Assembly: GCA_030605615.1 (NCBI GenBank)
Contig: JAUWHZ010000027.1
Location: forward strand, 1-57,820
DNA: 57,820 nt
Origin: Atribacterota bacterium
Lineage (GTDB): Bacteria; Atribacterota; Phoenicimicrobiia; Phoenicimicrobiales; Phoenicimicrobiaceae
Reading direction: 5' to 3'
Notes under the pieces: generated by a model
What the model saw: only the letters and a program-made list of their open reading frames with translations
What the model was told of the DNA's origin: nothing
Databases searched by the model: none
In this document: positions 10,999-35,958 of the stretch, one piece after another
Layout: every line of letters starts with the position of its first letter
Position numbering within the stretch: position 1 is the first letter of the stretch
Position numbers and translations under genes: made by a program

Positions 10999-11874
10999 AT
11001 GATAAAATATAAATATAATAGATGTTTATGGTTGATAATAATAACAGTATTTGTACTTGTGCTTTTAGCCGGGGTTATACCGGTTAGAGCAGAAGTGGGA
11101 GCACCCTTATCAGAAGAGAAGATCGGGGTAGTAGTTACTATCATCCCTTTAGCTGATTTTGTAGAGCAAGTGGGTAAGGATAAGGTGGGAGAAGTTACAG
11201 TTATGGTACCTTCAGGGGCTAACCCTCATACTTATGAGCCGACACCTGTTCAACTCAAAAGGATTAGTCAAGCCCAATTATATGTCAAAGTGGGGTCTGG
11301 AGTAGACTTTGAATTAGCCTGGATGGACAAAATAAGGGTGATAAATAAAGAAATGTTAATTTGTGATTCTTCACAGGGTATTAAGCTGATAAACCAGGAT
11401 CCCCATATATGGCTTTCTCCCCGAAATGCTAAAATTATGGTACAAAATATTTACCAGGCCTTAGCTGAAATTGACCCATATAGCCGAGAGTATTTTGAGA
11501 GAAATGCAATAGAATTTATTAAAAATTTAGACAGGCTGGATGAGGAGATTAGAATTCAATTTATTAGGATGGAGAATAAAACATTTTTATCTTACCACCC
11601 TTCTTGGAATTATTTTGCTAAGGATTATAGCCTTATTCAGTTAGCAATTGAAGATGAAGGTAAGGAGCCGAGCGCTGCCTATTTAGCCCATATAATAGAT
11701 CAAGCGAGAACTTACCATATATCTATTATCTTAGTCTCACCACAATTTAATATTAAAAGTGCCGAGGTGGTAGCTAAAGAAATAGGGATTGAGATTATAG
11801 TAATTGATCCATTATCTCAGGATTATATAAAAAATCTTAAAAAATTAGCCGATGAAATGGTTGGCAATGGGTGA
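10999..11874 (+). CDS. znuA: Zn/Mn ABC transporter substrate-binding protein
   Basis: GANPHTYEP, DPHIWLSP, YHPSWNYF, DPL; start moved out of the REP to ATG 10999. Confidence 0.88.
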   Translation: MIKYKYNRCLWLIIITVFVLVLLAGVIPVRAEVGAPLSEEKIGVVVTIIPLADFVEQVGKDKVGEVTVMVPSGANPHTYEPTPVQLKRISQAQLYVKVGSGVDFELAWMDKIRVINKEMLICDSSQGIKLINQDPHIWLSPRNAKIMVQNIYQALAEIDPYSREYFERNAIEFIKNLDRLDEEIRIQFIRMENKTFLSYHPSWNYFAKDYSLIQLAIEDEGKEPSAAYLAHIIDQARTYHISIILVSPQFNIKSAEVVAKEIGIEIIVIDPLSQDYIKNLKKLADEMVGNG

Positions 11875-11884
11875 TGAATAGATA

Positions 11885-12679
11885 ATGAATCTGGATAATA
11901 AAAATCAAAAGAATAAAAACCAAGAAACTATAATAGAAGTTATAAATTTAAAAAATGTCTGGGTAGATTATGATGATATTGTTGTGTTAGAAGATATAAA
12001 TCTTTCTATATACCAACATGAGTTTTTAGGAATAATAGGACCTAATGGTGGGGGCAAGACCACTTTGCTTAAAGTTGTCCTCGGTTTAGTTCAACCCAGC
12101 AAGGGAGAGGTTAATATTTTAGGGGTAAAGCCAGAAGAGGGCAGGGGATATGTTGGTTATGTTCCACAACACTGTCTTTTTGATCGAGGATTTCCTATAA
12201 GCGTTTGGGAGGTAGTATTGACAGGAAGATTGGGTAAGGGTAAATATTACAAGGCCTATAATAAAGTAGATAAACAAAAGGCACAAGATGTACTTGACCT
12301 TGTCGGAATGTCAGAATTTAAAGGGAAACAGATAGGAAAACTTTCTGAAGGTCAACAAAAACGTGTTTTCATTGCCCGAGCCTTAGTGACTGACCCTAAG
12401 ATTTTGCTGCTTGACGAGCCTTTGGCGAGTATCGATACTCCCTTGCAAACAGAATTTTATGAAATATTAGATAAGTTAAAAGAAAAGATGGCTATTATTT
12501 TGGTTACTCATGACCTTAGTGCAGTCTCGGTTTATGTGGATAAGATCGCCTGTCTAAATCGAAGGCTTTTTTATCATAATTCCAAGGAGATAAGTGTAAA
12601 AGATTTAGAAGAGACTTATCGTTGTCCGGTAGACCTGATCGCCCACGGTATTCCCCACCGGGTATTGAAAAAACATTAA
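11885..12679 (+). CDS. znuC: Zn/Mn ABC transporter ATP-binding protein
   Basis: GPNGGGKTT, GYVPQ, LSEGQQKR, LLLDEP, VTHD. Confidence 0.9.
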   Translation: MNLDNKNQKNKNQETIIEVINLKNVWVDYDDIVVLEDINLSIYQHEFLGIIGPNGGGKTTLLKVVLGLVQPSKGEVNILGVKPEEGRGYVGYVPQHCLFDRGFPISVWEVVLTGRLGKGKYYKAYNKVDKQKAQDVLDLVGMSEFKGKQIGKLSEGQQKRVFIARALVTDPKILLLDEPLASIDTPLQTEFYEILDKLKEKMAIILVTHDLSAVSVYVDKIACLNRRLFYHNSKEISVKDLEETYRCPVDLIAHGIPHRVLKKH

Positions 12680-13681: not shown

Positions 13682-15445
13682 ATGAAGGAATCTTCTACTG
13701 TTCCGGAAGATGTGAAACAGCGACTAAATTGGGTATTAATATTTATTATTATATGCTTTTCTGTTTTAGTTATTAGTCTGTGGTATCTACAAATGATTAA
13801 AGGAGAAGAACTTAGTAAAAGGGCAGTAGAAAATTGCATTCGTTCATTAGTCGAAGATGCTCCTCGGGGGAATATTTATGACCGTTATGGAGAGATGTTA
13901 GTGACCAATCGGCCAGCGGTGATAGTTTCGATAATTCCGGCGGAGGTTGATAATTTAAAAGAATTAAGTAAAAGATTAAGTAAAATAATTGGCCTTTCCG
14001 AGGAAGTTATTGAGCAAAAAGTAAAAAAATATACGGATAATCCCTTTAAGCCAGTAAAGATTTTAGATGATTGTAGGAAAGATAAAATAATTGAAATCGA
14101 AGAGAGAAAAAGTGAACTAAAGGGAGTGGTTTTAGAGGTTCAACCCAGGAGGAATTATCTTTATCACGAATTAGCAGCTCATAGCTTGGGGCATGTGGGA
14201 GAAATAGATAAAGAAGAGTTGCAAAGATTGGGTAACCCCAAATTCCAGGGAGGAGATATAATCGGCAAAACCGGGCTGGAGAAGTATTATGATGACATTT
14301 TAAGAGGAGAAAAAGGAGGAAAAGAAGTTGAGGTCGATGCCTTGGGCCGAGAAATAGCTCTGCTATTACATCGGAAACCTGTACCAGGCAAAGATTTGGT
14401 TCTAACTATTGATAGAGATCTACAACTCTACGGAGAAAATTTACTTTACGGAAAAAGAGGGTCTATTATAGTAAGTAACCCTTATAATGGCGAGATATTA
14501 GCTTTAGTTAATAGACCTTCTTTTAATCCTAATTTATTTGTCAGTGGAATTTCTTATCCTGATTGGGAGAGACTTTCTTCAGACCCCGATTATCCTTTAA
14601 CCAACCGGAGTGTCCAGGGTGTCTATGCCCCTGGTTCAATATTTAAAGTAGTTACTGCCATAGCTGCCTTGGAAGAAGGGGTTACCAATAGAAAGAGAAA
14701 AGTCTATTGTTCCGGTACTTTTGAGTTAGCTGATCAGGTTTTTACTTGCTGGAAGGAATTAGGGCATGGTAGTTTAAGCTTTGTCGATGGCATTGCTCAT
14801 TCCTGCAATATTTATTTTTATACAATAGGAAAAGAACTGGGGATTGAAGGATTTAGTAAATATATGCATAAATTTGGATTGGGAGAGAAAGTGGGTATTG
14901 ATTTACCAGCAGAAGCTCTAGGAACAATCCCTTCCTCTGAATGGAAGCAGAGGGAGCATAAACAGATATGGTTTCCTGGTGATACTATAAATCTTTCCAT
15001 AGGTCAGGGATATCTTTTATTAACTCCTTTACAGATTCACAGTATTATTTGTGCGGTGACTACAGAAGGGGAGATTTACCGATTACATCTGGTAAAAGAG
15101 ATAATTTCTCCTGATGGGGAAACAATTAAAGAAATTACGCCAGAAGTTTACCGGAAAGTAGATATTTCTACCAGCACTTTTCGAACTGTTAAGGAGGGAT
15201 TAAGAGCTACTATATTAAAAGGAACGGGTTGGCGGGCAAATGTTAAGGAACTATCGATAGCTGGTAAAACCGGAACAGCGCAAAACCCCCAAGGAGAAAC
15301 CCATGCTTGGTTTATGGGATTTGCCCCTTATGAGAATCCCGAAGTTTGCATCACCATTTTTATAGAAAATGGGGGAGAAGGGGGAGAAATAGCTGCCCCC
15401 ATAGCCCGCGCCATGCTGGAGAAATATTTTAATACCCAAAAATAA
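13682..15445 (+). CDS. mrdA: Penicillin-binding protein 2
   Basis: APRGNIYDR, PGSIFK (SxxK), SCN (SxN), KTGTAQ. Confidence 0.95.
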   Translation: MKESSTVPEDVKQRLNWVLIFIIICFSVLVISLWYLQMIKGEELSKRAVENCIRSLVEDAPRGNIYDRYGEMLVTNRPAVIVSIIPAEVDNLKELSKRLSKIIGLSEEVIEQKVKKYTDNPFKPVKILDDCRKDKIIEIEERKSELKGVVLEVQPRRNYLYHELAAHSLGHVGEIDKEELQRLGNPKFQGGDIIGKTGLEKYYDDILRGEKGGKEVEVDALGREIALLLHRKPVPGKDLVLTIDRDLQLYGENLLYGKRGSIIVSNPYNGEILALVNRPSFNPNLFVSGISYPDWERLSSDPDYPLTNRSVQGVYAPGSIFKVVTAIAALEEGVTNRKRKVYCSGTFELADQVFTCWKELGHGSLSFVDGIAHSCNIYFYTIGKELGIEGFSKYMHKFGLGEKVGIDLPAEALGTIPSSEWKQREHKQIWFPGDTINLSIGQGYLLLTPLQIHSIICAVTTEGEIYRLHLVKEIISPDGETIKEITPEVYRKVDISTSTFRTVKEGLRATILKGTGWRANVKELSIAGKTGTAQNPQGETHAWFMGFAPYENPEVCITIFIENGGEGGEIAAPIARAMLEKYFNTQK

Positions 15446-15446
15446 A

Positions 15447-15510
15447 AAAAGTTAACCAAAGGTGCCTGGCACCTTTGGTTAACTTTTGGTAAAGTTTGGT
15501 GCCGGGATCC
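15447..15510. repeat. REP palindrome (15447-15487) plus extra half-unit
   Basis: aaaagttaaccaaaggtgcc-t-ggcacctttggttaactttt-ggtaaagtttggtgccgggatcc; near reverse complement of 5155-5217. Confidence 0.95.
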
Positions 15511-15531
15511 CAATTTTTTGGAGGATGGAAG

Positions 15532-16638
15532 TTGAAAGAAAAATTAAGTAAATTAATTGAAAATTTAGACTATACTTTGCTTTTTGCAGTGGTAATCCTC
15601 TGTTTTTATGGCATACTGGTGCTGTATAGCTCAACTCGTATTGAATCTATGGGGGGGGAGCCGTTTTTTTATGTTAAACGGCAGTTCTTATGGATGATAT
15701 TAGGATTTTTATTTTTAACAGTTATACTTTTTATCGATTATCATCAGATAGAAAGGTATTCAACGGTTATTTATTTTGGGGTTATTGTTTTACTAGCAAT
15801 GGTTATAATTTTTGGTAGGTCAACTTATGGAGCAAGACGTTGGTTATCTATAGGACCTTTTGATTTCCAACCCTCTGAATTTGCTAAAATTGCTTTAATA
15901 ATATTTTTAGCGGATTTTTTATCTAAAAACAAACCAAAATTGGATAATTTTTTCTATTATTTACTGCCTTTCGCTTACACTGGGTTATTAATTTTATTGG
16001 TGTTCATGCAACCAGATTTAGGAACCTCTGTAGTATATTTAGCCATTCTTATAATAATGTTATTTACGGTGGGGGTTAAGATAAAATATTTGGTTTTGAC
16101 TTTTATAGCGGCCTTATCCTCTATTCCTGTTTTGTGGCTTATTTTAAAAGAATATCAAAAGAATAGGTTGCTTTTATTTATTAATCCTAATCTGGACCCT
16201 TTAGGGGGTGGCTATAATGTTATCCAATCTAAGATTGCCATTGGTTCTGGTGGCTTTTTAGGGAAGGGACTTTTTAGTGGTTTGCAAAGCCAATTAAAAT
16301 TTCTTCCTGCTCAGCATACAGATTTTATATTTTCTGTAGTGGGAGAAGAGTTAGGTTTTGCGGGAGCTATCTTATTATTAGGACTTTATGCGATTATATT
16401 ATGGAGAGGAACAAGAATAGCTCTTGAGGCAAGAGATTTATTAGGAACTTTGTTGGCTACGGGAGCGGTGGCTTTCCTTTTTTTTCATATAATAGTAAAC
16501 ATTGGAATGGCTATGGGAATGTTGCCAGCTACAGGATTGCCTCTACCTTTTTTAAGTTATGGCGGAAGCTTCATGATTTCTAATTTATTGGCTATAGGGA
16601 TATTGTTAAATGTGGAATTGCACAAGATAAAGTGGTAA
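15532..16638 (+). CDS. rodA: Rod shape-determining protein RodA (SEDS)
   Basis: GARRW, FQPSEFAK, QPDLGT, AQHTDFIFS, PFLSYGGS; TTG start after GGAGG. Confidence 0.95.
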   Translation: MKEKLSKLIENLDYTLLFAVVILCFYGILVLYSSTRIESMGGEPFFYVKRQFLWMILGFLFLTVILFIDYHQIERYSTVIYFGVIVLLAMVIIFGRSTYGARRWLSIGPFDFQPSEFAKIALIIFLADFLSKNKPKLDNFFYYLLPFAYTGLLILLVFMQPDLGTSVVYLAILIIMLFTVGVKIKYLVLTFIAALSSIPVLWLILKEYQKNRLLLFINPNLDPLGGGYNVIQSKIAIGSGGFLGKGLFSGLQSQLKFLPAQHTDFIFSVVGEELGFAGAILLLGLYAIILWRGTRIALEARDLLGTLLATGAVAFLFFHIIVNIGMAMGMLPATGLPLPFLSYGGSFMISNLLAIGILLNVELHKIKW

Positions 16639-23293: not shown

Positions 23294-26200
23294 ATGACCG
23301 GTATAGCTAATAATCTTTTAAAAAAGCTATTTTTAAAAGAAAAGCATATATATATTTTAAAAATTTTTTGTTTTATTGCTCTATTACTAATTATAATAAA
23401 TTTTTTTCTTACTTCTTCATTTGTCCAGGCCCCTGAACTAAAAATAAGTATATTATACCTTAATAATACTGAACTAACTGATTGGGATTGGTTAAGCAAA
23501 GGTTTAACTGATATGTTGATAGATGACCTTTCCCGGCTTGATTACATCACCTGTCCCTCCCGCCAGGACATAGAAGATTTGTACCTTAAACATAGTTTGC
23601 CTACTGCTCGAACCGAAATGAATAAGTCTCTATTAATCAAAATTAATGAGGATTTAAATGCTGAGATAATATTTTTTGGGAACTATTTTTTTTCTTCACC
23701 TTCCGAGTTGAATTTGAGTCTTAAAAAATATGAAGTAACAACTGGAGAAATTACCACTTTTCGAGATATTAAAGTGGAAAAGACCGATATCTTTAGCTTG
23801 AAAGAAGGGATTGTCTTTTTAATCTTGGAAGAACTTGGCATTGAGGAGCCATCCTCCGAGGATAAGGCTCTAATAAAAGAAATTCCTACTTCTTCTGTTG
23901 AGGCTTTAATTAATTATTATAAATGTATTGATTCCAGGGATAAGGCTATTATAGAATATCAAGGAGCAGATTATCCCAGTAAAAAATTATGGGCTGAGGC
24001 AATAGATTATGGGAAAAAAGCAGTGGCAGTTGACCCAAAATATGCTGAGGCTTTTTATCTTTTAGCTGAAATTTATAATAAGACCCGTTGGACTATCAGA
24101 GAGGTAGAAAGTTTAAATAAATTTATCCAGCTGGTAGAAGATAACCAATTGGGGAGTAAAAAAATTTACGAAAAAGTCGCTCAAGCCTATTTTAGATTGG
24201 GTTATGCCTTTTATTCTAAGAAAGAATTTGAACAGGCGATCGAATATTTTAATTCTTCTATAAAATATAATCCTGATCTATTAGAAGCCCACCTCTATTT
24301 GGTGCGAGTTTATTATGATAGGGGAGAGATGGGTCTCTCTCTTGATGAATGTGAAGAAGTTTTGAGGATAGACCCACAGAATAAAGAGATCTCCTGGTTT
24401 ATTAAAAAGAACGAACAAGCCCAAAAGTATGGTCGGGAAGCTTATGAAAATTACGAAAAGGGTTATCTGGCTTATAAAAAAGGAAATTTTGAAGAAGCCA
24501 TAGATTATTTTAAAATTTCTATTTTAAGCAATCCCGAGTTTAAGGAACCTCATTATTATATAGCTTTAAGTTATTATAATCTTGGAGATTTTGATAATTC
24601 TATTTCTCAATGGGAAGAAGTTATCAGGATTGACCCTTTTAACAATTCAGCAAAACATTTCTTAAATAAATCCTTAGAAGAGAAAAAATACGGACGAGAG
24701 ACTTTAAGGCATTTTAATGCTGGTTATGATTATTATATTAAAGGAGAATACGATAAAGCTATCGTAGAGTTTAATAAGTCTTTAAACTGTAATCCCAAAT
24801 TTGAGAAAGCCCGAAAATATCTTTCCCGTTCTTATTACCAGCTTGATCAGATGGACAAATACCGGGAAGAACGAGAGAAGGCCACTGAATTAAAGACCAG
24901 CGATGAAGAGGAGAGGGCGGAAGAACATTATAAATTGGGATATGAATTTTATTCCTTAGACGACTTCAAAGTGGCAATAGATGAACTTAAAAAAGCCCTG
25001 AATCTAAAAAGCGATTATCCCGGTGCACGCTTTTTATTAGGGGAGTGTTATTTTCAGCAAAAAGAATATCAATTGGCTCAGATTGAGTATGACCGGGTAG
25101 TAACTGATTCAGCAAAAAATGAATATACAGATGATGCCCTTTTGGGTAGTGGCTGGAGTTATTATTTATTAGGAGAATACCCGAAGGCAGCGGAGAGATT
25201 TTCAAAACTAATAGAAGAATTTCCCCAAAGTAATTTAGCCCTCCAGGCTAACTATAAATTGGGCAAATCATATTTTAAAGGAAAAGATTACCCCAAGGTA
25301 ATTAAAGCATATAAAGAGTTTATAGAAAAATATCCTCAGTTTCAAGGACCAGAAATAAAAGAAATATATTTCTTATTGGGCCAGGCCTATCTCTGGTCAG
25401 AGCAATATAAGGAAGCAGAGGAGACCTTTTCCAAGTTATCCTCTCTCTATCCAGAGTTTGAATTAATTAAGGAAGCGGAATACTTTCGAAGTTTAAGCCT
25501 ATTTAAGCAGGAGGAATATCAAGAAGCAATAATTAAACTGGAAGAGTTAGTGGCAGAAGGAGAGGACAAGGCAAAAAATGAGACCTATTATTTACTGGCT
25601 CGTTGTTGGTTAAATTTAGAAGAATATGATAAAGCTATTGAAAAGTTGGAAGATTTAAAACAACTTAAAGTGGAAGATTCTTTATTAGGGAAGGCCATCT
25701 TTGATTTAGGATTAGCTTATTCTCGCCAAGGAGACAAGGAGAGAGCAGTTTTAGAATTTCAAGAATTTATTGAAAAATATCCTCAAAGCGAACTGATTAA
25801 ATCGGCTCATTTTGAGCTGGGGAAAAATTTATATAATTTAAAGAAATATAAATTAGCCCTATCCGAATTAAAGGAAATTTCTACAGCCGAAGCCCTTTAT
25901 TTAAGGGGGAAGGCTGCTGAAGAACTGGGGGATCAAGAAGGAGAAATTGCGGCCTTTGAAGAACTACGGGAGAAATTCCCCCAAAGCGAATACTCTCAAG
26001 AGGCTTATTTTAAGTTAGGTAATTATTATTATAAGCAGAAGAAATATAAAGAGGCGATTGAGGAATTTAAGAAAATTAGTCTAATTTTTCCCCATTCCTC
26101 TTTGATCTCGGAAAGTTATTATTGGATGGGGTGGAGTTATTTTAAATTAACTGAATATCAGAAGGCAAGTGAGTGTTTTAAAAAAGTTGGGGAAGATGAT

Positions 26201-26932
26201 ATAAATTTAAAATTAGCTCAGAGAGCTATATTTATGGCAGCAGAGTCACTGTATAACCTTGAGGATTACCAAAAAGCCCGAGAAGAGTATAGAGCTTTTA
26301 TCGGAAAGTATCCTAAAGCAGAACTTTCTGTAAATGCCCAATATGCTATAGCCTGGACATTTTTGGAAAATAAGGAATATGAGCCCTCAATACAGGAGTT
26401 TAAAAAACTCATAAGCATTTATCCGGAAAGCAAATTTGTGGAAGAAGCTCAATTTAGAATTGGTAAGGGTTATTTTCTTTTAGGAAATAAGGATGAGGCC
26501 AAGACGGAATTAGAGAAATTTATAGATAGCTATGCTAAGAGCAATTTTAGGGCAGAGGTCCTTTATTCATTAAGCCAGATGTATCTAGAAGAAGAAAAAT
26601 GGATGGACAGCATTATCGAGTTAGAAAAATTAGTGAGAGAATATCCAGATACTAAATATTTACCTGATGTCTTATATGGTTTGTGTCTTTCTTATTTTAA
26701 AAAAGATGAATATAATAAGGCTATTGAAGCGGGAGAAAAATATTTAAAAGACTATTTTAAATTACAATTCGGAGATGATATCTTATATATAAAAGCGATT
26801 TGCTGGGAAAAGTTAGAAAATCAGGAAAAGGCAATTACTGATTATCAGATTCTAATTTCTAAATTTCCCCAGAGTCCATATATAGAAAAAGCCAAGGAGA
26901 GGTTGGAAGTTTTACAGAAGGAAAGTGAGTAA
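23294..26932 (+). CDS. Giant membrane-anchored TPR protein (N-terminal TolB-N/CsgG-like domain, many CpoB/BamD-like TPRs)
   Basis: N-terminal TM; WLSKGLTDMLIDDL segment; repeated …FIEKYPQS…A.F.LG TPR units over ~1000 aa. Confidence 0.8.
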   Translation: MTGIANNLLKKLFLKEKHIYILKIFCFIALLLIIINFFLTSSFVQAPELKISILYLNNTELTDWDWLSKGLTDMLIDDLSRLDYITCPSRQDIEDLYLKHSLPTARTEMNKSLLIKINEDLNAEIIFFGNYFFSSPSELNLSLKKYEVTTGEITTFRDIKVEKTDIFSLKEGIVFLILEELGIEEPSSEDKALIKEIPTSSVEALINYYKCIDSRDKAIIEYQGADYPSKKLWAEAIDYGKKAVAVDPKYAEAFYLLAEIYNKTRWTIREVESLNKFIQLVEDNQLGSKKIYEKVAQAYFRLGYAFYSKKEFEQAIEYFNSSIKYNPDLLEAHLYLVRVYYDRGEMGLSLDECEEVLRIDPQNKEISWFIKKNEQAQKYGREAYENYEKGYLAYKKGNFEEAIDYFKISILSNPEFKEPHYYIALSYYNLGDFDNSISQWEEVIRIDPFNNSAKHFLNKSLEEKKYGRETLRHFNAGYDYYIKGEYDKAIVEFNKSLNCNPKFEKARKYLSRSYYQLDQMDKYREEREKATELKTSDEEERAEEHYKLGYEFYSLDDFKVAIDELKKALNLKSDYPGARFLLGECYFQQKEYQLAQIEYDRVVTDSAKNEYTDDALLGSGWSYYLLGEYPKAAERFSKLIEEFPQSNLALQANYKLGKSYFKGKDYPKVIKAYKEFIEKYPQFQGPEIKEIYFLLGQAYLWSEQYKEAEETFSKLSSLYPEFELIKEAEYFRSLSLFKQEEYQEAIIKLEELVAEGEDKAKNETYYLLARCWLNLEEYDKAIEKLEDLKQLKVEDSLLGKAIFDLGLAYSRQGDKERAVLEFQEFIEKYPQSELIKSAHFELGKNLYNLKKYKLALSELKEISTAEALYLRGKAAEELGDQEGEIAAFEELREKFPQSEYSQEAYFKLGNYYYKQKKYKEAIEEFKKISLIFPHSSLISESYYWMGWSYFKLTEYQKASECFKKVGEDDINLKLAQRAIFMAAESLYNLEDYQKAREEYRAFIGKYPKAELSVNAQYAIAWTFLENKEYEPSIQEFKKLISIYPESKFVEEAQFRIGKGYFLLGNKDEAKTELEKFIDSYAKSNFRAEVLYSLSQMYLEEEKWMDSIIELEKLVREYPDTKYLPDVLYGLCLSYFKKDEYNKAIEAGEKYLKDYFKLQFGDDILYIKAICWEKLENQEKAITDYQILISKFPQSPYIEKAKERLEVLQKESE

Positions 26933-26933
26933 G

Positions 26934-27130
26934 TAGTCGTTAGTGAATAGTGAATAGCAAAGAAGAAAGAAAATAAGTGAAGAATAAGATCATATCGAGA
27001 AATGTATATGATGTAGGGGCTTGATTTATCAAGCCCGCAAAACTCGGGTCGGATAAATCCGACCCCTACGCCAGATTCAGAGCTCCATTAGACTATTAAC
27101 TAACGACTAAATTGACTGGTAGACTGGAAG
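26934..27130. repeat. Heptamer-repeat mosaic enclosing a GTAG-REP doublet (27013-27069)
   Basis: tagtcgt/tagtgaa units; GTAG-gggcttgat-tt-atcaagccc … gggtcggat-aa-atccgaccc-CTAC. Confidence 0.85.
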
Positions 27131-27188
27131 ATTTTAAAGGGAAATAATTAAAAAGGTTAAAAATAAAAAAAGAGGGGGCAAATATTTA

Positions 27189-27863
27189 ATGTTTGAGGTT
27201 TTTGAAAAAGGCGGATTCTTAATGTATCCCATATTTATATGTTCTTTATTGGCGGTTACTATTTTTTTTGAACGAATGTTCTATTTAAAGAGTGTTAAAA
27301 GCAGGAGTAAAAGATTTGTTGGTCGAGTTAAGAATTTGGTGAAAAAAGGAAGTATTGAGCTGGCTATTTCTGCTTGCCGTAAAAGTCCTACTCCAATATC
27401 TCAGATTATGTTAGATGGTTTAATGAAATATGGTCGAAGTCGGGAAGAGATAAAAGAGGCAATCGAAGATAGTGCGAACCAAGAAATTCCTCTTTTAGAA
27501 AGAAATCTTTCCATCCTTTCTACTATTGGAAATGTTACTCCCTTATTAGGACTTTTAGGAACAGTATTTGGTATGATTAAGGCATTTAATGTAATAGCTG
27601 TTATGGGAGTAGGCAAACCAGAGGCACTGGCAGAAGGTATTTCAATGGCATTGCTTACTACTGCCTTTGGATTATCAGTGGCTATACCTACCATTGTAAT
27701 TTACAATTATTTAGCTCATCGAGTAGATAAATTAATAAAAGAGATGGAAATAAGTTGTGTAGATCTTTTAGAACTTTTAACTAACCATGATATGAGACAA
27801 GAAACAAGTCAGAATTTTGATCGGGAAGGTGAAGTAGCGTATGAAGTTTCCTCATCCGAATAA
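27189..27863 (+). CDS. exbB: MotA/TolQ/ExbB proton channel protein
   Basis: TPLLGLLGTVFGMI, ALLTTAFGL. Confidence 0.9.
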   Translation: MFEVFEKGGFLMYPIFICSLLAVTIFFERMFYLKSVKSRSKRFVGRVKNLVKKGSIELAISACRKSPTPISQIMLDGLMKYGRSREEIKEAIEDSANQEIPLLERNLSILSTIGNVTPLLGLLGTVFGMIKAFNVIAVMGVGKPEALAEGISMALLTTAFGLSVAIPTIVIYNYLAHRVDKLIKEMEISCVDLLELLTNHDMRQETSQNFDREGEVAYEVSSSE

Positions 27864-28257
27864 AAAGAGTGCTAGTTTTAATTTGACTCCTTTAATAGAT
27901 GTAGTCTTTCTTTTATTGATATTTTTTATGTTGACTACTACATTTATAAATTTAGAAAGCAGAATAAAGGTTAATTTACCCACTGGTGATTTTGCTGCTG
28001 CCGAGCCGTCTGAAAATATTACCCTAACTATTACTGAAAATAACACGATTTACTTTAATGGAAAATTGATAGATCCTTTAAAGATTACTGAAAATGTGGC
28101 TACAGAATTAGAAAATGATCCGGAAAAATTGGTGATATTAGAGGCTGATAAAAATGTTCTTCATGGTAAGGTAATCAGGGTAATGGATTTAATTAAAAAA
28201 GGTGGAGCAGATAGGATTGCTATTGCCACCAAGCCAACCGAAATAAGTAGTGAGTAA
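27841..28257 (+). CDS. exbD: ExbD/TolR family protein
   Basis: NLTPLIDVVFLLLIFFM (conserved Asp), ADKNVLHGKVIRVMD. Confidence 0.92.
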   Translation: MKFPHPNKKSASFNLTPLIDVVFLLLIFFMLTTTFINLESRIKVNLPTGDFAAAEPSENITLTITENNTIYFNGKLIDPLKITENVATELENDPEKLVILEADKNVLHGKVIRVMDLIKKGGADRIAIATKPTEISSE

Positions 28258-28456
28258 TTCGTATCTCGTATCTCGTAAGGAAAACAGGAGTCAGAAGCCT
28301 AATTCGTATCTCGTGAATCGTATCTCGTATTCTAACGGATAGCGTTTAGCGTATAGGATAATTAGTATATAGTGAATAGTATTTAGTCGTTAGTAGGACA
28401 GGCGTCTCGCCTGTCTATCAGTCAATCAACGACTATTCCTTAACGACTAATTTAAT
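28258..28456. repeat. Heptamer-repeat mosaic with GTAG-REP (28393-28415)
   Basis: tcgtatc tandem units; GTAG-gacaggcg-tct-cgcctgtc; blocks shared with 35960-36010 and 57319-57390. Confidence 0.85.
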
Positions 28457-28492
28457 TGGTAAATTAATAATATGAGGTGCTTATAAAAATAT

Positions 28493-29983
28493 ATGCCCAG
28501 ATATAGTTATAGAATAAAACGCTTAAAACAGAGTAAAAAAAGTTTTTTAGGAAGGTCATTTCTAATTTCTATTATAGTTAATGTTATATTATTGTATGCT
28601 TTTGGAAATATGATTGCCTTTGATTTTAAGAAACCTTTTCCAGAAGAAGAGCTGACCCTGGTCACTCTGGTGGAACTTCCTGCCCCCAAAAAGCCAGAAA
28701 CTAAAAAACCAGAAATTACTGAGAAAAAACCTGTTGCTCAATTACAAGTTAAACCAAAGCTCGAGCCAGTTTCACCAGAGCCACCTAAATTAAAGGAAGA
28801 GGTAACTGAGACTAAGGTAATAGAGAAAGAAGAATTAACCGAAGGCACACCCAAAGTAGAAGTTAAGACTCCACAGATTGAGACCGAACCCGAATTGATA
28901 GCACCTTCTCCACAAGCAAAGGAGTCTTTAGGAGAGGACATAAGTATTTCTACTGAATATTTTAAGCAGGCCATAGCCAGTAGAAAAGAGGTAAAGGGGG
29001 AGATCTTCGAGCCAGGAGAGTCACAGCTTAAGGTTAATTTAGGCGAAAAAGAGGAAGAAAATATTGAAGCGACCTATGGTACAATAGTTAGTCCGGGAGA
29101 AATTAGTACCCTTCCCGAAGTAAAGGAAAAAGAATCACCCTTCGGGAGTAGACCCCTTTCTATTATGATAGAAAATTCAGAGGGAGCCCGACCCCAGACT
29201 GGTTTAGATAAGGCCAGTATTGTCTACGAAGTTTTAGCAGAAGGTGGAATAACTAGATTTTTAGCTATTTATTATGATAAAGATGCAGAAGAAGTTGGAC
29301 CAGTAAGGAGTGCCCGTCCTTATTTTGTTAGTAAGTCTTTAGAACACCAGGCAATTTATGTCCATATAGGAGGAAGTGAAGAAGCTTATAATTTCATAAA
29401 GACAGAAAAAATTGATGATATAAATGAATTTGTAGATTTTCAACCCTTTTGGCGAACTAAAGACCGAAAACCACCACATAATTTATATACCTCAACTATT
29501 AAGCTAAGAAAAGAAGCTAACAAATTAGGTTATATAGAAATGATAAAGAAGGAAGATTATCAATTTGAAACTGATAGAAATGAAAAATTAACTGGCAGAC
29601 AAGCCAATACTATAGTAATTCCTTATAACGATATCTATACAGTTAGCTATGAATATCAGCCTGAATCAATGAAATATCTAAGATTTTTAAATGGTAAGCC
29701 CCATATAGATGCTAAGACCAAAAAACAATTGTCAATAGATAATATTGTTGTCCAATTTGCCAAAACCAAAGTCATTGATGAAGAGGGAAGATTAGCAATG
29801 GATTTTATTGGTGAGGGAAGAGGTTTAATATTCTTTAAAGGAGATTCTGAAGAAATTACCTGGAAAAAGCAGGACTTAAGGGCAAGGACAGTATTTTTTA
29901 ATAAAGAGGGAGACCGAATAGCTTTCACGCCAGGGAGCATTTGGATCCAAATTGTCTTCTCAGATTTAACGGTAGAATATTAA
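28493..29983 (+). CDS. TonB-like anchor + Pro/Lys/Glu-rich stalk fused to DUF3048 (YerB-like) domain
   Basis: TM SFLISIIVNVILLY; PAPKKPETKKPE… stalk; IMIENSEGARPQTGL…EGGITR…GPVRSARPY. Confidence 0.8.
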   Translation: MPRYSYRIKRLKQSKKSFLGRSFLISIIVNVILLYAFGNMIAFDFKKPFPEEELTLVTLVELPAPKKPETKKPEITEKKPVAQLQVKPKLEPVSPEPPKLKEEVTETKVIEKEELTEGTPKVEVKTPQIETEPELIAPSPQAKESLGEDISISTEYFKQAIASRKEVKGEIFEPGESQLKVNLGEKEEENIEATYGTIVSPGEISTLPEVKEKESPFGSRPLSIMIENSEGARPQTGLDKASIVYEVLAEGGITRFLAIYYDKDAEEVGPVRSARPYFVSKSLEHQAIYVHIGGSEEAYNFIKTEKIDDINEFVDFQPFWRTKDRKPPHNLYTSTIKLRKEANKLGYIEMIKKEDYQFETDRNEKLTGRQANTIVIPYNDIYTVSYEYQPESMKYLRFLNGKPHIDAKTKKQLSIDNIVVQFAKTKVIDEEGRLAMDFIGEGRGLIFFKGDSEEITWKKQDLRARTVFFNKEGDRIAFTPGSIWIQIVFSDLTVEY

Positions 29984-33636: not shown

Positions 33637-34899
33637 TTGGATTCAGGAAAATTTATTATTACCGGAGGAAAGAGATTAGATGGTAGTGTAGAAATAGCTG
33701 GAGCGAAAAATTCTGCTCTATCTATTATGGCCGCCACCCTATTAACTAAAGATGTCTGTATTTTAAGAAATATCCCCCATCTTACCGATGTTGATACTAT
33801 GGCTGCAGTAATAAGGAAATTAGGGGTTAAAGTGGAATGGAGAGGAGATAATACGCTTTATATCGATTCCGATAATTTTAATAATTATGAGGCCCCTTAT
33901 GAGCTGGTTAAGAAGATGAGGGCTTCTATTTTAGTTATGGGGCCACTCTTGGCTCGCTTAAAGAAAGCGAAGATATCTTTGCCGGGCGGTTGTGCTATCG
34001 GTGCTCGTCCAGTTGATTTTCACATAAAGGGTTTTGAAGTTTTAGGTGCTCAAGTTGAAGTGGTGAGAGGTTACATTAAAGCAGAGGTTAAAAAGTTAAA
34101 AGGGGATGATATATACTTAGATTTCCCCAGTCTGGGAGCAACTGAAAATATAATGATGGCTGCCTCTTTAGCTGAAGGGGTTACTAAAATTGAGAATGCT
34201 GCCAAGGACCCTGAAATAGTAGAATTGGGAAATTTTTTAATAAAAATGGGAGCTAAAATAAAAGGTTTAGGGACTGATCTTATAAAAATAAAAGGAGTAA
34301 AAAAATTAAATGGAGTTGAATATAATATAATTCCTGACCGAATAGAAGCAGGAACCTATATGATTGCAGCAGCTATTACAGGTGGAGATATTTTAATAGA
34401 AAAAATCGATCCTTTATTATTAAAACCGGTAATAATAAAATTAGAAGAAGCAGGGGTAAAAATTAAACAAAAGAAGGATTCAATCAAGGTGATAGGACCT
34501 AAGAGAATTAATGCAGTGGATATTAAAACTTTACCTTTCCCAGGATTTCCTACTGATATACAGCCTCAGTTTATGGCTTTAACCTGTGTGGCGAAAGGGA
34601 CGAGTGTTATTATTGAAAGTGTATTTGAGAATAGATTTGCTCATACCGGAGATTTAATAAGAATGGGGGCAGATATTAAAGTTGAAGGACATAGTGCTAT
34701 TGTCAAGGGTGTAAGGAAATTGAGTGCTGCACCGGTAATGGCCTCAGATTTAAGGGGTGGAGCAGCTTTGATATTGGCTGGTTTGGTAGCAGAAGGAACT
34801 ACTGAGCTGAGCAGAATATATCACTTAGATAGAGGATATGTGAAGTTGGCAGATAAGCTAACTTCTTTAGGAGCAGACATTCATAGAGTGGAAGAGTAA
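33637..34899 (+). CDS. murA: UDP-N-acetylglucosamine 1-carboxyvinyltransferase
   Basis: GAKNS, LPGGCAIGARPVD, PDRIEAGT, GFPTD, HLDRGY. Confidence 0.97.
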   Translation: MDSGKFIITGGKRLDGSVEIAGAKNSALSIMAATLLTKDVCILRNIPHLTDVDTMAAVIRKLGVKVEWRGDNTLYIDSDNFNNYEAPYELVKKMRASILVMGPLLARLKKAKISLPGGCAIGARPVDFHIKGFEVLGAQVEVVRGYIKAEVKKLKGDDIYLDFPSLGATENIMMAASLAEGVTKIENAAKDPEIVELGNFLIKMGAKIKGLGTDLIKIKGVKKLNGVEYNIIPDRIEAGTYMIAAAITGGDILIEKIDPLLLKPVIIKLEEAGVKIKQKKDSIKVIGPKRINAVDIKTLPFPGFPTDIQPQFMALTCVAKGTSVIIESVFENRFAHTGDLIRMGADIKVEGHSAIVKGVRKLSAAPVMASDLRGGAALILAGLVAEGTTELSRIYHLDRGYVKLADKLTSLGADIHRVEE

Positions 34900-34941
34900 T
34901 ATACTAAATACTAATTTTAGGTAGAGGAGGAGAAAATAAAT

Positions 34942-35958
34942 ATGCTAGGAATGGACAGAAGTCTGGGCATAGACCTGGGAACCGTAAGTGTTATAATTTA
35001 TATGAAGGGGAAAGGTATTGTCCTTCAGGAACCTTCAGTAGTATCAATTTTACAAGATAGTGGAAAGGTCCTGGCAGTGGGAGAAGAAGCGAAAGATATG
35101 CTGGGTAAAACGCCAGGAAATATAATTGCTATTCAACCAATGAAGAGTGGGGTTATTGCAGATTATGAAATAACCGAAAAAATGTTGAGTTATTTTATCA
35201 AAAAGGTATGTGGCAATAGTAAGGTATTTCGTCCTCAAGTAGTAATTTGTGTCCCTTCAGGAGGGACTGAAGTAGAGAAGAGAGCAGCCATAGAAGCAGC
35301 TATGCAAGCTGGAGCAAGAAAGGCTTATTTAATTGAAGAGACGATGGCAGCAGCTATTGGAGCAGGTTTGGATATAAGTGAACCTTATGGCAATATGATT
35401 GTTGATGTAGGAGGAGGGACCGCCGACATAGCGGTTATCTCTCTGGGTGGAATTGTGGTTAGTGAATCGTTAAGAATAGCCAGTAATGACTTTGATGAAA
35501 ATCTTATAAAATATATCAAAGATAAATATAATTTAATGATTGGTGAAAGAACTGCTGAAACCTTAAAAATAGAAATTGGCACAGCGGTGGAATTAGAAGA
35601 AGAATTATTTACAGATATAAGAGGAAGAGATTTAGTATCTGGTTTACCCAAGAGTATTTCTGTAGGTTCTAATGAAGTGTTGAAAGCTATTTTTCCTTCC
35701 TTAAAAATGATAATAGAAGCAATTAAAGCAGTTTTAGAGAAAACTCCTCCCGAGTTAGCAGCGGATATTGCCGATAAAGGGATTGTCGTTACCGGAGGAG
35801 GAGCTTTATTGAGAAACTTTGATCAATTATTGACTGAGGTAATCGGGATACCTGCATATTTATCAGAAAATCCAATTTCCTGTGTAGCCTTAGGTGCGGG
35901 GAAGGTTTTGGATAACATCCATATATTAAAGAGTGGGTTGGTAAGTACTTACAAGTAA
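34942..35958 (+). CDS. mreB: MreB/Mbl actin-like protein
   Basis: GIDLGT, VDVGGGT, GERTAE, TPPEL, TGGGAL; murA-adjacent position suggests Mbl type. Confidence 0.9.
   Translation: MLGMDRSLGIDLGTVSVIIYMKGKGIVLQEPSVVSILQDSGKVLAVGEEAKDMLGKTPGNIIAIQPMKSGVIADYEITEKMLSYFIKKVCGNSKVFRPQVVICVPSGGTEVEKRAAIEAAMQAGARKAYLIEETMAAAIGAGLDISEPYGNMIVDVGGGTADIAVISLGGIVVSESLRIASNDFDENLIKYIKDKYNLMIGERTAETLKIEIGTAVELEEELFTDIRGRDLVSGLPKSISVGSNEVLKAIFPSLKMIIEAIKAVLEKTPPELAADIADKGIVVTGGGALLRNFDQLLTEVIGIPAYLSENPISCVALGAGKVLDNIHILKSGLVSTYK

Follow-up and report, generated by a model that had tools for sequence, protein, structure and literature searches.

A block of four co-oriented genes at positions 23294-29983 of the stretch of DNA analyzed here probably encodes a Ton/Tol-type trans-envelope machine driven by the proton motive force (PMF). 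The stretch (the window, 57,820 nucleotides) comes from an Atribacterota bacterium and is contig JAUWHZ010000027.1 of GenBank assembly GCA_030605615.1. As an earlier note made from the sequence had stated, the block consists of four open reading frames (ORFs), all on the + strand. They encode a giant secreted tetratricopeptide repeat (TPR) protein of 1212 aa, an ExbB/TolQ-type proton-channel subunit of 224 aa, an ExbD/TolR-type subunit of 138 aa, and a TonB/TolA-like stalk protein of 496 aa. In the reading that we favor, the stalk protein would be a force transducer in which a YerB/DUF3048 head replaces the C-terminal domain of TonB or TolA. For a long time, to our knowledge, ExbBD/TolQR motors were believed to serve no clients other than Ton and Tol. 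The earlier note had called the machine undescribed, and this holds for only part of it. Alternative force transducers, tipped with a vWA domain and encoded beside TPR, tolQ, and tolR genes, were proposed from genomes alone by Williams-Jones et al. 2025 (Mol Biol Evol msaf138, PMC12204202), as the main text of that paper has it, so the kind has already been described. A variant with a DUF3048 head is not in print as far as we searched the literature.

The window is contig C6 of a metagenome-assembled genome (MAG) of 624 kb in 27 contigs, which is 66% complete. Sequencing runs that contain this DNA come from cold-seep and subsurface sediment, and all relatives of the window proteins that bear a name are assigned to Atribacteria, Atribacterota, or Caldatribacteriota. 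For comparison across the phylum, we used a set of 86 Atribacterota genomes, a "good" subset of 51 genomes that are at least 90% complete, and a neighborhood set of 12 loci covering all seven Atribacterota families (f1-f7).

Anatomy of the stalk protein and its partners

The last gene of the block (28493..29983, +) has the TonB/TolA architecture that the earlier note had described. Its N-terminus, MPRYSYRIKRLKQSKKSFLGR, holds 8 Lys or Arg residues among 21 and leads into a hydrophobic transmembrane (TM) helix at residues 22-42 (28556..28618, +), which contains S26-I-I-V-N30 (S26 at 28568-28570, N30 at 28580-28582). The stalk, put earlier at about 170 aa, is a disordered Pro/Glu/Lys-rich linker at residues 43-212 (28619..29128, +) of 169 aa, with 12% Pro, 21% Asp+Glu, and 14% Lys+Arg. 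A globular head follows at residues 213-496 (29129..29980, +). An AlphaFold2 (AF2) model of the protein, based on an alignment of 86 sequences, gave a helix at 22-38, a stretch without secondary structure at 39-216 (predicted local distance difference test, pLDDT, 41-58), and, at 213-496, a domain predicted with confidence (pLDDT ~97). A TM helix, a disordered linker, and a head without homology to TonB or TolA make up the same layout as that of the transducers of Williams-Jones et al. 2025.

The head carries a full DUF3048/YerB-like domain rather than TonB_C, as had been proposed. The only Pfam matches in the stalk protein were PF11258 (DUF3048 N) at residues 213-347 (2.3e-49, 167.8 bits against a cut-off of 25) and PF17479 (DUF3048_C) at residues 376-485 (1.2e-28, 100.2 bits against a cut-off of 25), with no match to TonB_C (PF03544) or to a TolA-type C-domain. 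Bacillus subtilis YerB (PDB 2psb, from structural genomics) is a clear homologue, both in sequence (E 4e-45, 35-36% identity) and in structure (Foldseek 1e-28; Z 37.2, root-mean-square deviation 2.0 over 275 residues). When the head was compared with PDB structures (Foldseek, VIA-align), YerB was the sole fold with Z of at least 5, and a vWA fold was not recovered. An Atlas search that excluded DUF3048 clusters gave no usable match. YerB itself is presumably a short monoderm lipoprotein without a TonB-like helix, stalk, or motor, which fits the leaders of short DUF3048 forms. Across 86 family members, P234, E246, E250, R255, G269, R272, S273, R275, P328, R397, and W457 of the head are invariant. 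The polar residues among them (E246, E250, R255, R272, S273, R275, and R397) look like a binding or catalytic pocket, a prediction from conservation.

The motif in the TM helix sets the stalk protein apart from most of its family. The Ser is invariant in all Atribacterota orthologs read. Four residues on, Asn occupies the second position in 38 loci from 36 genomes, and the canonical His is found in family f7 (L041), P0125, and P0131. Asn can reportedly replace His20 in E. coli TonB. Among 134 DUF3048 cluster representatives with an N-terminal hydrophobic segment, S-x3-[HN] lies within the hydrophobic core of only three, all of them stalked, and the TM cores of the other 131 lack it. When 14 stalk N-termini were compared by hhalign with the N-termini of nine canonical Atribacterota TonBs, in which the Ser and His are invariant, S26 aligned with S13 and N30 with H17 (a modest match, with a probability of 64.7% and E 6e-5 over 43 columns).

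The region just after the helix is also conserved. According to the main text of PMC12204202, the SHLS motif (S-x3-H-x6-L-x3-S) binds the motor, and TolA and TonB proteins generally have a beta-strand motor box in the disordered region that follows the helix. Zinke 2024 (PMC10771500) describes a post-helix TonB segment that makes a strand between two ExbD protomers. Residues 52-63 of the stalk protein (ELTLVTLVELPA; 28646..28681, +) directly follow the TM helix, in the place of this TonB peptide. Among 21 orthologs, E61 and P63 do not vary and V57 is kept in at least 90%, and the region is the best-kept non-globular part in distant families (33.5% identity versus 25% for the stalk). We regard this segment as a candidate motor box. 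A complex prediction with two copies of the ExbD periplasmic domain (56-138) and stalk residues 40-100 scored 0.38/0.42/0.40, with one control at 0.30, and weighs neither way. Linker length varies little across the phylum, from 156 to 171 aa in 20 orthologs (median 169), even where sequence identity of the linker between distant families falls to 25%.

The two genes upstream, exbB (27189..27863, +) and exbD (27841..28257, +), overlap by 23 nt. Pfam assigns the first product to MotA_ExbB (PF01618; 6.9e-36, 123.2 bits) and the second to PF02472 (2.4e-31, 108.9 bits). The NCBIfam models for TolQ and TolR outscored those for ExbB and ExbD, at 109.5 bits (cut-off 221) versus 79.4 (cut-off 206.2) for the ExbB gene and 77.4 bits (cut-off 127.3) versus 60.3 (cut-off 123.45) for the ExbD gene, with all four scores below the equivalog cut-offs. 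T125, T157, and T158 of ExbB are invariant in 19 sequences. So is the TM residue Asp20 of ExbD in 17 orthologs, and it is present in every ExbD copy of the loci read. In the 5:2 motors that MotA/ExbB/TolQ proteins form with ExbD/TolR proteins, this Asp and the Thr residues in the TM helices have a functional role. Family membership together with these invariant residues suggests that ExbB and ExbD form an inner-membrane motor. This ExbB is the only MotA_ExbB gene found in the host MAG.

The motor genes are duplicated in three loci of family f4 (L033, L037, and L042, in genomes G019, G012, and G020). In these loci, a second, nearly identical ExbB-ExbD pair is found on the upstream side of the TPR gene, so that one copy of the motor genes stands before the TPR gene and another before the stalk gene. 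The frames into the TPR and stalk genes start with the same residues in L033 and L042, which suggests that the duplication was a tandem one and took in the 5' leader.

The first gene (23294..26932, +) encodes the TPR giant. An N-terminal signal or anchor helix at residues 1-41 (23294..23416, +; helix 5-41 in AF2) precedes an alpha-beta domain at about residues 48-180 (23435..23833, +; pLDDT 86-97) and a TPR array at about residues 234-1212 (23993..26929, +), where Pfam and NCBIfam stretches span 241-1209. Pfam found many TPR families (among them TPR_2, TPR_6, and TPR_16) and the BamD-like YfiO, with no coiled-coil family match listed. The NCBIfam model tol_pal_ybgF (TIGR02795) scored 289 bits against a cut-off of 90, but this is the sum of 10 TPR stretches, and BamD scored 229 bits over 7 stretches. 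The leader is a hydrophobic stretch ending in ...SFVQA/PE that would probably be cleaved. Because this leader has no lipobox Cys, the TPR giant would probably be a scaffold in the periplasm, either soluble or anchored at its N-terminus.

Residues 1-240 of the TPR giant, modeled by AF2 from 12 orthologs (pLDDT 88.8), form a long N-terminal helix and the alpha-beta domain. Foldseek matched this domain to the C-domain of LpoB (4q6l, E 2.6e-6), to TolB N-domains (E 6e-6 to 1e-4, with 4r40, 7mx5, 2w8b, and 2hqs at 6e-6 to 2e-5), and to FlgT, CsgG, and PelC (probability 1.00, with an overall E range of 2.6e-6 to 1e-4). The TolB-N/CsgG-like domain of the earlier note was therefore right at the level of the fold. 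The assignment to LpoB, TolB-N, and CsgG is a fold-level one, since Pfam has no match in the domain; Atlas gave sub-threshold CsgG/LpoB leads only.

Conservation and genomic setting

The stalk protein is found throughout the phylum. It was matched in 82 of 86 genomes and in 42 of 43 high-quality genomes, and the match is near full length, covering at least residues 22-488 of the query, in 73 of the 86. Most of the remaining matches are fragments at contig ends or only the short paralog. The order TPR-ExbB-ExbD-stalk-(lgt)-xerD-PNP is kept in all 12 loci of the neighborhood set, from all seven families. In each of these loci, the stalk gene stands beside exbB-exbD, as a gene of the TonB family would, and the TPR gene is syntenic with the tolQ/tolR-like pair, as in the systems of Williams-Jones et al. 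2025. Conservation of the fusion and of the adjacency, which had been named beforehand as a check, is thus borne out across the phylum. The gene upstream of the block varies, being obg in f1 and f2, an ABC ATPase gene in f3-f6, and a proA-like gene in f7. Junctions can be tight. For example, in L032 the ExbB and ExbD genes overlap, a gap of 2 nt lies between the end of ExbD (10178) and the start of the stalk gene (10181), and the stalk gene overlaps lgt.

An additional ORF of 249-256 aa lies between the stalk gene and xerD in seven of the eight f3-f6 loci (L032, L033, L034, L035, L040, L042, and L043; L037 was not read). Its start overlaps the stop of the stalk gene in L032 and L034, and directly adjoins it in those of the other loci in which this junction was checked. 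Pfam identifies the L032 copy (11641-12408) as lgt, the gene for prolipoprotein diacylglyceryl transferase, and its N-terminal sequence recurs in the other copies. The insertion of lgt may be a further hint of a link to the envelope or to lipoproteins.

In the window, the block lies in a housekeeping and cell-wall region, between a PBP2-RodA pair (13682-16638) and a MurA-MreB pair (33637-35958), with RNase G, L21, Obg, XerD, and PNP also encoded between these two pairs. This setting bears on whether the block could be a motility, secretion, or defense motor, in the manner of the GldLM/AglRQS-type or Zorya-type use of MotAB/ExbBD homologues. PADLOC gave a weak match of ExbB to ZorA (E 0.0046), and the vWA-tipped relatives are tentatively linked to gliding in the main text of PMC12204202. 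However, PADLOC had no match for the other three proteins of the block, no gliding or secretion genes stand alongside, and the block is universal, single-copy, and placed near obg, xerD, PBP2-RodA, and MurA-MreB, unlike defense islands. We consider such a role very improbable.

A different explanation is that the stalk protein does not work with the motor at all. The last gene would then encode a membrane-anchored YerB-like protein of the wall or periplasm on a long spacer, its adjacency to exbBD would be inherited synteny, and the motor would serve the TPR protein or an unrecognized partner. Some of what we found fits this explanation, which we nevertheless hold to be unlikely. Most DUF3048 proteins are forms of ~350 aa that start with a signal or lipoprotein leader and are not encoded near a motor, and other long forms, of 550-940 aa, have Pro-rich linkers behind ordinary signal peptides. 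Moreover, xerD and PNP downstream are likewise syntenic across the phylum, so conserved order alone is no proof of a functional tie. On the other hand, a Ser that never varies, with an Asn or His one helical turn away, would not be expected of a passive anchor at ~26% regional identity, nor would a passive spacer hold its length within so narrow a range. The motif is missing from the TM cores of the other 131 representatives, and the motor would have no TonB- or TolA-like partner in most genomes. In addition, the upstream flank changes three times, and the four genes stay together.

Several further observations weigh against the reading of the block as a PMF-driven machine with the stalk protein as its transducer. 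Only two of the four SHLS positions match, with the Ser kept and the His replaced by Asn, and the Leu and second Ser positions are occupied by F37 and I41. Residues 1-212 have no TonB or TolA match in the PDB by sequence, and the hhalign match described above is modest, since TM helices align easily. In the AF2 model of the free chain, the candidate motor box has no predicted strand. Residue 153 of ExbB (27645-27647), within the TM3 motif GIS-E-ALLTTA, is Met here, as opposed to Glu in 15 of 19 sequences and Val in three; the equivalent Glu matters in TolQ and ExbB. No ligand or activity is known for the head, and since DUF3048 works without a motor in monoderms, the head in principle needs no energization. 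The region from obg to PNP is syntenic throughout the order of the host, and because these kin are not independent, part of the adjacency signal is shared ancestry. Finally, the sister lineage P0131/L057/L107, which has S-x3-H and a linker of ~400 aa, has a divergent xylose-isomerase-like gene and not ExbBD on the upstream side (the side covered), which would also suit a passive anchor.

Outside the named Atribacterota set, no stalked lineage is closer than P0131. A quick maximum-likelihood tree built from only the head domain places every stalked form in a single clade (SH-aLRT 95), with P0131 as sister to 21 Atribacterota rows. A search with P0131 returned itself and one 90% relative only, and a metagenome scan returned short contigs only. 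A scan of genome contigs with P0125 returned only a Bacilli MAG with the DUF3048 domain alone.

The wider DUF3048 family has 7424 matches among cluster representatives and is mostly made up of lipoprotein-sized proteins of ~350 aa in a monoderm context without a motor. In a full-text search of the literature, "DUF3048" had passing occurrences only, with none in a title or abstract. In other long forms, of 550-940 aa, the signal peptide is followed by a helical N-domain that is conserved, and a linker of 100-300 aa rich in Pro and Ala then leads to DUF3048. Forms of this kind without the S-x3-H helix are P0160, P0162, P0173, P0175, P0180, P0183, and P0193, and further such forms are P0205, P0211, P0222, P0231, P0238, P0241, and P0253. 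It seems from these sequences that a tethered DUF3048 head on a long spacer arose more than once. Short paralogs of ~312-340 aa are present in many f1 and f2 genomes. Similarly, contig C16 of genome G000 carries a second, stalkless paralog of 311 aa (L116:1482-2417, -) with an ordinary hydrophobic leader and altered pocket motifs, adjoining cytidine-deaminase-like and recO-like genes.

Envelope type and other possible clients

We also looked for other clients of the motor. In agreement with the earlier note, Pfam found no TonB-dependent transporter (TBDT), TolB, or Pal among the 26 window ORFs, and no TonB_C, TBDT barrel, or OmpA match was found in the whole MAG (66% complete). Among the good genomes, TonB_C occurs in 11 of 51, mostly in family f2, and a TBDT barrel in 15, leaving 36 without one. 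G000 and the closed genomes G005, G019, G030, and G032 had no TBDT, which argues against TBDTs as the clients of the block. In closed genome G005, there is a single MotA_ExbB gene and a single ExbD gene, both in the block, and no TonB_C, TBDT, or OmpA domain.

Where a canonical TonB does occur, it appears to come with its own motor. A second ExbB adjoins TonB_C in nine of the 11 TonB_C genomes, and both cassettes read have the full TBDT-TonB-ExbB-ExbD order with a canonical S-x3-H TonB. The cassette is patchy in its distribution (L046 and L048; G025, G045, G072, G076-G080, G083, and G084). Because TonB sits in its own cassette, the canonical Ton module is accessory and self-sufficient. Since it is present in only 11 of 51 genomes and stands apart from the block, a canonical TonB does not account for the motor of the block, an explanation that the earlier note had left for checking.

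The block could still be a diverged Ton nutrient importer, in which the DUF3048 head opens a non-classical outer-membrane transporter. ExbB and ExbD with a TonB-like transducer are the Ton layout, and the phylum is able to use classical Ton modules. Against this, none of the 12 loci has a gene for an outer-membrane barrel within the block or next to it, and most good genomes have no TBDT. The partner is a soluble TPR/LpoB-like protein, of a type seen in envelope-assembly systems, and the NCBIfam scores lean toward TolQ and TolR. We find an importer improbable.

A classical Tol-Pal system is not found either. TolB_N was absent from all five of the best genomes, in a search in which the controls (E. 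coli and Caulobacter) were positive, and no OmpA/Pal gene belongs to the block in the loci read, which does not fit a TolA of a Tol-Pal system. OmpA-domain genes, where present, mostly stand beside a longer MotA-like gene, as MotAB-like pairs. Such pairs consist of a MotA-like gene (frames of 261-290 aa) and an OmpA-domain gene of 239-253 aa. They occur at G019:C1:219156-220375, in f3 (G008), and in f4-f7, and are absent from the host's family in the genomes searched. Omp85/BamA and an SLH protein of 574-587 aa were each present in all five of the best genomes. These Atribacterota are OmpM-type diderms without Tol-Pal. In the Atribacterota isolation papers that we searched, there was no mention of TonB, ExbB, or Tol.

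Because BamA and an OmpM-like SLH protein are present in Atribacterota, TolB is absent, and most of the genomes lack TonB and TBDTs, the most likely job of the block would be envelope maintenance, coupling the outer membrane or wall to the energized inner membrane. The block would then most likely be a functional stand-in for Tol-Pal/CpoB rather than a system for nutrient import. The earlier note had suggested a repurposed motor that drives a DUF3048 effector in envelope remodeling or transport. This suggestion is supported in part. The fusion and the adjacency are conserved and a canonical TonB does not account for the motor, and a role in envelope remodeling or transport is inferred.

Relation to known systems and proposed mechanism

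The closest described relatives are the vWA-tipped transducers, whose function is also unknown. As far as the main text of PMC12204202 describes them, they share with the stalk protein a TM helix bearing a Ser/His-type motif, a linker that is disordered, and a head unrelated to TonB_C, and they resemble the block in gene order and logic. Their linkers contain a motor box, for which the stalk protein has the candidate at residues 52-63. The heads are different, however, with DUF3048/YerB here and vWA there. The block also has one tolR/exbD gene where they have a heterologous pair, and in most of the Atribacterota it has Asn at the His position. The hosts differ as well. The block is found in Atribacterota, an OmpM-type diderm phylum, whereas the vWA forms are found in Proteobacteria, the Planctomycetes-Verrucomicrobia-Chlamydiae (PVC) group, Bacteroidetes, and Rhodothermaeota. 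DUF3048 and YerB are not mentioned in the main text of that paper.

TonB and Tol-Pal each share part of this arrangement. Like TonB, the stalk protein has a basic tail, one TM helix in which a polar residue stands four positions after a Ser, a conserved post-helix segment, a Pro/Glu/Lys-rich spacer, and a gene directly after exbB-exbD. Unlike TonB, it has no TonB_C, it belongs to a phylum in which most genomes lack a TBDT, and the canonical TonBs of that phylum have their own ExbBD cassettes. The likeness to Tol-Pal/CpoB (tolQ-tolR-tolA-tolB-pal-cpoB) lies in the motor scores that lean toward TolQ/TolR, in a periplasm-spanning transducer, in a partner that joins a TolB-N/LpoB-like fold with CpoB/BamD-like TPRs, and in a setting rich in cell-wall genes. 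The block differs in that it encodes neither a TolA domain III nor a Pal, and neither a TolB beta-propeller nor a match to TolB_N was found. CpoB is a short periplasmic protein of ~260 aa, with an N-terminal coiled coil and one TPR domain, and is encoded in tol-pal; the TPR giant, at 1212 aa, is different in this respect.

Taken together, these comparisons suggest how a PMF-driven machine of this kind might work. With ExbB and ExbD as the motor in the inner membrane, the TM helix of the stalk protein would dock on the motor rim through its S26-x3-N30 face, and the conserved strand-like residues 52-63 might engage the periplasmic dimer of ExbD. The length-conserved linker of ~169 aa could then span the periplasm and present the DUF3048 head to a target in the zone of the wall or outer membrane. 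Judging from conserved gene order, the TPR giant with its LpoB/TolB-N-like domain may be a scaffold, a regulator, or the target itself.

A broader proposal is more doubtful, and we offer it tentatively. The block may be the long-missing energized envelope system of OmpM-type (Terrabacteria-like) diderms, with a TonB-derived transducer whose head was swapped for a wall- or outer-membrane-acting YerB/DUF3048 domain, and with the TPR giant as its periplasmic partner. It would then be the Atribacterota counterpart of Gracilicutes Tol-Pal/CpoB. If this were true, it could bear on the unusual multilayered envelope of the Atribacterota and would provide a first functional assignment, as a cell-wall-directed module, for the orphan DUF3048/YerB family of Firmicutes and Actinobacteria.

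The block is the only ExbBD-type motor in most Atribacterota, an abundant subsurface phylum with a debated three-layer envelope and with cultured members. DUF3048/YerB, a family with a solved structure and no function, would be tied to a mechanism that is open to probing. As a second unrelated head, from another part of the bacterial tree, DUF3048 would also show that new energized envelope functions can arise, as a general route, by exchange of the head on a TonB chassis.

A minor feature of the host concerns the spacing of the genes. The intergenic gaps within the block are 256 and 235 nt here, compared with 2-120 nt in other genomes, and both hold copies of a small element with inverted ends (26934-27109 and 28378-28452). 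The arms of the first copy (26934-26951 and 27092-27109) are 94% complementary, and the second copy flanks a GC-rich hairpin (28398-28416). A 10-mer from the core of the element occurs 36 times in the 624-kb MAG, against ~1.4 copies expected, and often directly after stop codons, which suggests a family like the repetitive extragenic palindromes (REP) or miniature inverted-repeat transposable elements (MITE).

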